In this document: piece by piece, positions 25,401-25,996 of the stretch
Layout: each line of letters starts with the position of its first letter
Numbering within the stretch: the stretch's first letter is position 1
Source of the DNA: Escherichia coli O157:H7
GTDB lineage: Bacteria; Pseudomonadota; Gammaproteobacteria; Enterobacterales; Enterobacteriaceae
Direction: 5' to 3' (one strand)
DNA: 64,000 nt
Assembly (NCBI RefSeq): GCF_013167455.1
Contig: NZ_CP038328.1
Made by a program: the position numbers and the translations under genes
Notes under the pieces: generated by a model
What the model was told of the DNA's origin: nothing
Seen by the model: only the letters and a program-made list of their open reading frames with translations
Databases searched by the model: none

Positions 25401-25777
25401 GAAGCTGACCAGACAGTCGCCGCTTCGTCGTCGTCCTCTTCGGGGGAGACGGGCGGAGGGGAGGAAAGTCCGGGCTCCATAGGGCAGGGTGCCAGGTAAC
25501 GCCTGGGGGGGAAACCCACGACCAGTGCAACAGAGAGCAAACCGCCGATGGCCCGCGCAAGCGGGATCAGGTAAGGGTGAAAGGGTGCGGTAAGAGCGCA
25601 CCGCGCGGCTGGTAACAGTCCGTGGCACGGTAAACTCCACCCGGAGCAAGGCCAAATAGGGGTTCATAAGGTACGGCCCGTACTGAACCCGGGTAGGCTG
25701 CTTGAGCCAGTGAGCGATTGCTGGCCTAGATGAATGACTGTCCACGACAGAACCCGGCTTATCGGTCAGTTTCACCT
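25401..25777 (+). ncRNA. rnpB: RNase P RNA (M1 RNA), 377 nt
   Basis: Sequence gaagctgaccagacagtcgccgcttcgtcgtcgtcctcttcggggga...ggtcagtttcacct matches the M1 RNA sequence as recalled, including the conserved ggaaagtccgggctcc and acagaacccggcttat regions. Confidence 0.95.
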
Positions 25778-25786
25778 GATTTACGT

Positions 25787-25816
25787 AAAAACCCGCTTCG
25801 GCGGGTTTTTGCTTTT
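25787..25816 (+). terminator. rnpB intrinsic terminator, copy 1
   Basis: aaaaacccgc-ttcg-gcgggttttt gcttttgg, GC stem plus U-run. Confidence 0.85.
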
Positions 25817-25900
25817 GGAGGGGCAGAAAGATGAATGACTGTCCACGACACTATACCCAAAAGAAAGCGGCTTATCGGTCAGTTTCACCTGATTTACGTA

Positions 25901-25930
25901 AAAACCCGCTTCGGCGGGTTTTTGCTTTTG
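25901..25930 (+). terminator. Duplicated rnpB-type intrinsic terminator, copy 2
   Basis: Identical hairpin and U-run inside the second repeat unit. Confidence 0.8.
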
Positions 25931-25996
25931 GTGCACAGGGTAAGATGAATAAATATCTACGGTATTAATAATAGACCTTGTAAGAAGTTATTAAGT

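Follow-up and report, generated by a model that had tools for sequence, protein, structure and literature searches.

Analysis of the window, i.e. the complete 64-kb stretch of Escherichia coli O157:H7 DNA considered here, revealed that rnpB, the gene for the RNase P RNA, runs into a tandem repeat that begins inside the gene itself and copies its 3' end together with its terminator. This array very probably goes back to an old duplication and was subsequently shaped by the gain and loss of units and by gene conversion, a history that would have left rnpB with a second predicted terminator.

RefSeq annotation of identical O157:H7 genomes gives the gene order garK, rnpB, yhaC, yhaB, tdcR and tdcABC, and a 1001-bp stretch around the array is 100% identical to complete O157:H7 chromosomes. 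Together with the presence of related arrays in thousands of complete genomes, this identity rules out an assembly artefact, which the preliminary description had named as a condition that would undo it. The promoter-like site of rnpB ends 8 nt upstream of the first M1 RNA base as placed by Rfam. On the other side of the array, the stop codon of the convergent yhaC lies 72 nt from the distal terminator T2, and the 395-aa product of this gene gave no match in Pfam. The features of the locus are collected in Table 1.

Table 1. Features of the rnpB 3' region, with positions in the window
Feature	Position	Strand	Basis
Promoter-like site of rnpB (putative function), GTGACA, 17-nt spacer, TATACT	25365-25393	+	Consensus scan, 10/12 matches
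rnpB, RNase P RNA (M1 RNA), type A	25401-25777	+	RF00010, 318.6 bits, E 3e-104, model positions 1-367, full length
Unit 1, 101 bp	25728-25828	+	Repeat search and blastn of units against the window
Terminator T1 (predicted), 12-bp hairpin GTAAAAACCCGC TTCG GCGGGTTTTTGC, then TTTTGG	25785-25812	+	Predicted fold
Unit 2, 113 bp, pseudo-3' end of rnpB	25829-25941	+	Repeat search and blastn identity to unit 1
18-nt segment ACTATACCCAAAAGAAAG replacing rnpB AGAACC	25850-25867	+	Direct unit comparison
12-bp core CTTATCGGTCAG	25871-25882, also in the gene 25758-25769	+	Junction comparison with the NCTC9966 islet
Terminator T2 (predicted), hairpin identical to T1, then TTTTGGTG	25898-25925	+	Terminator scan and fold
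Distal array boundary, spacer TGCACAGGGTA, then decayed unit head AGATGAATAAATATCTACGGTA	25932-25964	+	16/22 head match
yhaC, AT-rich, convergent with rnpB	25997-27184	-	ORF list and RefSeq annotation of an identical genome

Unit 1 starts within the structural gene and comprises the last 50 nt of rnpB (25728-25777, the latter position being the mature 3' end), a 7-nt trailer, the T1 hairpin, its U-rich tail and the spacer GGAGGGGCAGAA. Unit 2 is built from a head (25829-25849), the replacement segment, a copy of the 23-nt 3' terminus of M1 RNA (25868-25890), the trailer, T2 and its tail. Repeat search and blastn agreed on two shared blocks: the head block AGATGAATGACTGTCCACGACA, in which 25728-25749 and 25829-25850 are identical at 22/22 positions, and a block of 64 nt, CGGCTTATCGG...GCTTTTGG, identical at 64/64 positions between 25755-25818 and 25868-25931. 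Similarity over such identical stretches of 22 and 64 bases cannot be due to chance, and the claimed homology of the units to the rnpB 3' end and its terminator is thereby confirmed. The start-to-start spacing of 101 and 114 bp likewise agrees with what had been described. With a third, decayed head (25943-25964) that matches the unit head at 16/22 positions, the window holds about 2.2 copies, namely unit 1, unit 2 and this 22-nt head.

An 18-nt insertion had been proposed for unit 2. The segment of 18 nt is indeed present, but it takes the place of AGAACC (25749-25754 in rnpB), and the net gain is only 12 nt. According to the Rfam alignment, AGAACC forms part of the 3' strand of the catalytic-core helix P4. 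As this strand is partly destroyed in unit 2, the copy cannot serve as a working ribozyme end and represents a broken rather than a spare end of rnpB; the Rfam RNase P model also does not extend into unit 2. Segments of this type are the mark of extragenic units and occur in homologous form in every extragenic unit of at least 30 species. A blastn search with the units found no further copy within the 64-kb window, which rules out a dispersed repeat family of the REP/BIME or ERIC-like kind. Tandem Repeats Finder reported nothing in the window, since the array amounts to only about 2.2 copies that differ by an indel.

Folding analysis upheld the description of two tandem predicted intrinsic terminators. 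T1 reached a minimum free energy of -19.4 kcal/mol (z -3.9, 0/200 shuffles as good) and the identical hairpin of T2 the same -19.4 kcal/mol (z -4.2), each with a U-rich tract immediately behind a G+C-rich hairpin, i.e. the form of an intrinsic (Rho-independent) terminator. The terminator scan flagged T2 alone and not T1 because the tail of T1 has four instead of five T in the 8-base window, while the hairpins themselves are identical. Both carry a UUCG loop and are flanked by A5 and T5 runs in a nearly symmetrical arrangement (AAAAA-CCCGC-TTCG-GCGGG-TTTTT), and the reverse strands fold as well, with -15.7 kcal/mol for T1 and -17.3 kcal/mol for T2. The layout of a bidirectional terminator, with an A tract, a hairpin, a T tract and the end of a convergent gene nearby, is thus present. 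Judged from sequence and predicted fold, T2 is a candidate second terminator, and because A and T runs flank the hairpins, the reverse strand folds and yhaC converges on rnpB, it is plausible that T1 and T2 stop transcription from both directions. In E. coli, the terminator tail CUUUUGG is predicted to pair with CCAAAAG in the insertion; we rejected this pairing as a specific element, as it amounts to generic base pairing between A and U runs that is not specific across genera. Cambray et al. 2013 (PMC3643576) included T1 of rnpB in their measurements of natural terminators.

The most likely role of the array would accordingly be that of a redundant set of terminators, possibly acting in both directions, between the converging genes rnpB and yhaC. 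T2 would act as a second identical terminator 113 bp after T1, and transcripts that read through T1 would carry the module for 3' processing and termination twice. If both hairpins work in two directions, they may insulate the strongly transcribed rnpB and yhaC from each other, and the array may have a selective value. A comparable layout is found at rrnB, where T1-T2 likewise form two strong hairpin terminators in series behind a stable-RNA promoter, with catching read-through as the likely role; at rnpB, in contrast, the second terminator is an exact duplicate that came about by duplication of the gene end and is missing in about 30% of strains. Another parallel is reportedly offered by E. 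coli tyrT, where, as Egan and Landy (1978) and Rossi et al. (1981) are said to have described, units of 178 bp follow the tRNA-Tyr gene about three times, each starting with the last bases of the tRNA, and termination is reported to be Rho-dependent. This locus shares with rnpB a stable-RNA gene followed by tandem units made from its own 3' end, termination signals and a small basic ORF, but it concerns another gene with unrelated sequence and Rho-dependent termination.

The repeat array 3' of rnpB is reportedly already known, which the preliminary description did not recognise. In 1983, Reed and Altman (PNAS 80:5359) reportedly described repeats as well as open reading frames in the region 3' of E. 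coli rnpB, with a period of 113 bp and 3.5 copies in K-12, and we take the array in the window to be a short allele of this K-12 array. Tandem Repeats Finder indeed returned 113 bp x 3.5 copies at 96% for K-12, and unit 2, with its 113 bp, is 98% identical over 103 nt to the K-12 units. Both arrays occupy the same locus, have the same unit, start inside the structural gene, carry a terminator hairpin per unit and contain small ORFs across units. They differ in that K-12 has three full extragenic units plus a head compared to one plus a decayed head in the window, and in a REP/BIME palindromic element that has inserted into the terminator of the degenerate final unit in K-12 (positions 3360-3480 of locus L001; also in loci L041 and L043) and is absent in the window. 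Beyond this unit, K-12 reaches the same distal boundary as the window (...TTTTGG TGCACAGGGTAA GATGAATAAATATCTACGG), which is common to UTI89, O55:H7, K-12, CH4790 and RM13745 regardless of the number of units. The spacer between rnpB and yhaC measures 219 bp in the window versus 613 bp in K-12, and the RefSeq record of MG1655 (3269603-3270215) holds no annotation in this repeat-filled spacer. The locus tag b3122, which would fall between yhaC (b3121) and rnpB (b3123), is missing from the MG1655 record.

A search of unit 2 against 5,426 complete E. coli genomes yielded 13,913 places in 5,396 genomes, with 1-9 places per genome, a range that includes the roughly 2.2 copies of the window. Where loci were read directly, the per-genome counts were equal to the size of the local array. 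Among 60 genomes sampled at even intervals, one place was found in 17, two in 15, three in 9, four in 14, five in 4 and six in 1. At least one full extragenic unit is present in 3,702 genomes, while about 30% are without any. Variation extends into O157:H7 itself, as the span in strain F8092B is exactly 113 bp shorter than in the window. The expectation that copy number varies between strains was therefore correct. UTI89 and O55:H7 belong to the roughly 30% of E. coli genomes that do without an extragenic unit, and the second terminator is therefore dispensable.

The preliminary description had further placed the array at the boundary of an AT-rich islet and suggested that islet insertion might coincide with changes in repeat number. 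The array does border on a step at about 25950-26000 where G+C falls from 0.49 to 0.30, but the presumed islet is the yhaC-yhaB block, which is also found in K-12 and most E. coli and is thus ordinary E. coli DNA and no O157 islet. In the window, yhaC, yhaB and tdcR lie in a G+C trough of about 3.5 kb (26000-29600) with mostly 29-40% G+C. The block beside the array is itself variable in E. coli, and its presence does not follow the number of units: O55:H7 TB182A has an intact yhaC-yhaB and no extragenic unit, UTI89 lacks extragenic units and retains yhaC-yhaB as pseudogene fragments only, and CH4790 combines an intact block with five units. The block is likewise intact in K-12 with three units and in the window with one, whereas RM13745, with two units, has the block with a frameshifted yhaC. 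In UTI89 (positions 3577-4090 of its locus), rnpB lies about 560 bp from tdcR and the remnants of yhaC-yhaB are short. One unit of RM13745 (1531-1650 of its locus) looks as if it had been imported from cryptic-clade Escherichia.

Homologous arrays were also detected in Salmonella, Klebsiella, Citrobacter, Enterobacter, Cedecea, Mixta and marine Neptuniibacter. Those of Salmonella and Klebsiella were first found in chromosomal records mislabelled as plasmids: in Salmonella Senftenberg, six extragenic units measure 108 or 116 bp each, and Klebsiella pneumoniae has 2.5 units with a length of 116 bp, while Klebsiella aerogenes retains only a remnant head. One genome per species was then scanned with the pattern TGTCCACGAC N12-30 GCTTATCGGTCAG, in which the flanks are fixed and the insertion is free. 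This gave 32 loci in Citrobacter, Enterobacter, Cedecea, Phytobacter, Buttiauxella, Lelliottia, Atlantibacter, Yokenella, Klebsiella, other Escherichia species, Mixta and Neptuniibacter. The single genomes representing E. coli and Salmonella gave no match, which in the case of E. coli fits the polymorphism within the species. Overall, arrays are distributed over at least 12 genera of Enterobacteriaceae, Mixta (Erwiniaceae) and marine Neptuniibacter.

Across these genera, the left junction GATGAATG is common to all but a few extragenic units, and every unit carries a segment of 17-21 nt at one and the same site, with related sequences such as GCTATACCCAAAAGAAAG, GCTATGCTCAAAAGAACG and GCTCTTCATGAAAAGAAAG among others. 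Trailer and terminator of the units, on the other hand, are 0.87 identical to the flank of the host's own rnpB versus 0.66 between genera (19 species). As trailer and terminator track the rnpB flank of the host, concerted evolution is indicated, and the combination of a shared junction, a related insertion and host-like flanks is what would be expected from one old duplication plus gene conversion. The insertion segment itself is 0.77 identical between genera, above the 0.66 of trailer and terminator, a conservation that is not obviously explained by plain drift. Terminators occur in two variants, with a short loop (CCCGCTTCGGCGGG) or a long loop (CCCGTCAGTGCAAACTGGCGGG); the two are mixed within single Salmonella arrays, and cryptic-clade Escherichia arrays show the long-loop form only.

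The array of Neptuniibacter sp. PT1 (positions 5514-6707 of its locus) has about 13 units, 84-99 bp long, which duplicate the end of the organism's own rnpB on the 3' side and lie between rnpB and mraZ-rsmH-ftsI-murE. Two metagenome contigs confirm this array with fewer units, six in one of them (L046, 1-240; L047, 470-1077). The Neptuniibacter units contain an insertion related to the enterobacterial one and are without the G+C-rich terminator hairpin; arrays can therefore persist without supplying terminators. Some of these units carry the 3' strand of the Enterobacterales type. In a further metagenome contig, JABAOE010000294 (121-180), a genuine rnpB has 11 extra bases, AGGTCTCGACT, exactly at the insertion site of the pseudo-ends, a site that corresponds to 12 Rfam consensus columns missing in E. 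coli.

We thus favour a scenario in which the terminal ~50 nt of rnpB were duplicated in tandem long ago, along with the 3' trailer, the intrinsic terminator and a short spacer. The copy outside the gene would later have gained the insertion of 12 nt net, breaking part of the P4 3' strand, and selection on rnpB would keep this insertion out of the gene. The number of units would rise and fall through replication slippage or unequal homologous recombination, with the 64-nt blocks of identical sequence as substrate, and gene conversion would keep the units similar to the rnpB 3' flank.

Two explanations attribute a product to the units. According to the first, they encode small basic peptides translated from read-through transcripts, and each unit does contain an ORF, of 38 aa in K-12 (MNDCPRHYTQKKAAYRSVSP...) and 45 aa in the window (25831-25968). 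The K-12 units provide GGAGG upstream and an overlapping ATGA stop/start, and open reading frames in the units were reportedly noted by Reed and Altman in 1983. However, the frame meets a stop codon behind codon 9 in Enterobacter Ag1, Lelliottia, Atlantibacter, Enterobacter 10-1 and Mixta, is shifted in Klebsiella and Yokenella by an insertion that is 1 nt shorter, and has lost its ATG in some units, and these broken frames in other genera rule out a conserved coding ORF. Furthermore, the differences between K-12 units are all non-synonymous in the ORF frame, the stop codon at unit boundaries results automatically from the motif ATGAATGA, and the ORF lies downstream of a strong predicted terminator with another one within it. 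A coding function is thus extremely improbable.

According to the second, the extragenic units produce a functional RNA, either as a decoy for 3' processing enzymes, which the preliminary description had suggested alongside 3'-extended precursors, or as an antisense mimic that pairs with the M1 5' end. The units do retain a 23-nt copy of the M1 3' end that is complementary to the M1 5' end, together with trailer and hairpin, and the insertion segment is moderately conserved across genera. Yet RNAalifold on 35 distinct head-insertion-core segments yielded -2.04 kcal/mol, 5 pairs and essentially no covariation, and nothing was conserved outside the terminator in the 35 distinct units; the consensus scan detected no promoter-like sequence within the array; gene conversion from rnpB would in any case preserve the parts that are conserved; and about 30% of E. 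coli genomes exist without units. An Rfam search of the window array returned RNase P only. A hairpin between head and insertion with an apparent compensatory change, seen in Cedecea-type units, Mixta and Neptuniibacter, was also considered and dropped, as it is absent in E. coli, Salmonella, Citrobacter and Klebsiella and was not recovered by RNAalifold. Taken together, we judge an RNA function of the units very unlikely.

A different connection emerged from E. coli NCTC9966, in which similarity to the window breaks off where rnpB ends. An islet of roughly 10 kb (positions 12459-22810 of the locus) sits in the last bases of the gene and encodes a 486-aa tyrosine integrase (PF00589), a flagellin, a second gene of the recombinase family, possibly an invertase, and a phase 1 flagellin repressor. 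The attL junction reads ...CCCGGCTTATCGGTCAG/CTTCAACTTCTTCTAAAACAATACG... and the attR junction ...GAAGCCGCCTTATCGGTCAG/TTTCACCTGGTTTACG..., followed by the native terminator and a unit. Both share the 12-bp block CTTATCGGTCAG, which is present in rnpB and in every unit, and the islet provides rnpB with a new 3' end, CTTCAACT instead of TTTCACCT. The islet matches the published flk genomic islet, for which a passage of PMC3378880 citing Feng et al. 2008 describes excision by the Orf486 recombinase between terminal direct repeats, switching the flagellar antigen. In Enterobacter roggenkampii NZ_CP109732 (L005, 4040-4200; L039, 1-24000), an identical element end, TTCTTCTAAAACAATACGTTGGTGTGTCT..., is attached to rnpB at precisely this base and adjoined by lambdoid prophage genes, and in Cedecea (positions 4570-4700 of its locus) it occurs inside an extragenic unit, beside a 511-aa ORF. 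With the joint at this base recurring in both of these genomes, the core is a real insertion point. The 90-kb 'plasmid' NZ_CP109732 also carries the chromosomal gar genes.

These junctions raise the question of whether the units themselves are scars or landing pads of integrative elements that use the 3' end of rnpB as attachment site, with an array built up by repeated insertion and accretion. The islet directly after rnpB in NCTC9966 with its attL/attR core in every unit, its likeness to the flk islet and Orf486 recombinase as portrayed in that passage of PMC3378880, the identical joints in Enterobacter roggenkampii and Cedecea, and the arrays of Klebsiella and three Escherichia species that end in a unit cut exactly after the 12-bp core would all agree with such an origin. 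In the window, however, the units follow one another head to tail, directly and at a fixed period, and we found no islet, no integrase and no foreign DNA between them, with yhaC, yhaB and tdcR as downstream genes. Site-specific integration followed by excision would leave no terminator and spacer between the copies, and the single left junction and homologous insertion across genera fit one old duplication better. The islet arm resembles rnpB upstream of the core only marginally, with 221/5000 shuffles scoring as well, and homology between the two was dismissed on these grounds. A search for the attachment site in sequenced phages matched only mislabelled bacterial contigs and low-coverage fragments. 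Considering the fixed-period abutment, the shared junction and insertion, and the marginal likeness of the arm, we do not regard integration as the maker of the array and consider such an origin quite unlikely. A related proposal, in which the pseudo-3'-end array is old and widely kept at rnpB loci and was perhaps spread or maintained via integrative elements that use its units as multi-copy landing sites, appears unlikely to us as well.

Duplication followed by unit turnover and gene conversion hence remains our preferred account, with the flk-type elements as users of a core that the units share with the gene. The resemblance to attL/attR repeats at tRNA and tmRNA 3' ends and to the flk islet consists in a duplicated 3' piece of an RNA gene that marks a hotspot for foreign DNA, and in the 12-bp core of each unit being the crossover block of the islet in NCTC9966, and thus of a known integrase. 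The difference is that the copies in the window are adjacent, with no element and no integrase between them, and that period and junction are fixed across genera. The impression of a foreign-DNA boundary at the array conveyed by the preliminary description therefore has a basis, by way of the insertion core. The arrays in other genera, their concerted evolution, the non-conserved ORF and RNA fold and the core of the flk islet go beyond that description.

The array is genuine yet largely unremarkable: it accounts for the strange appearance of the rnpB end and has little importance for the window itself, while the wider comparison is of modest interest. For annotators and assemblers it holds a warning, as the spacer between rnpB and yhaC varies in steps of ~113 bp, even within O157:H7. 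More broadly, the locus presents a stable-RNA gene that drags a broken copy of its own end through many genera, kept in step by gene conversion, and the same short core is the site-specific insertion point of an islet that switches the flagellar antigen and marks a hotspot for foreign DNA beside an essential ribozyme gene.
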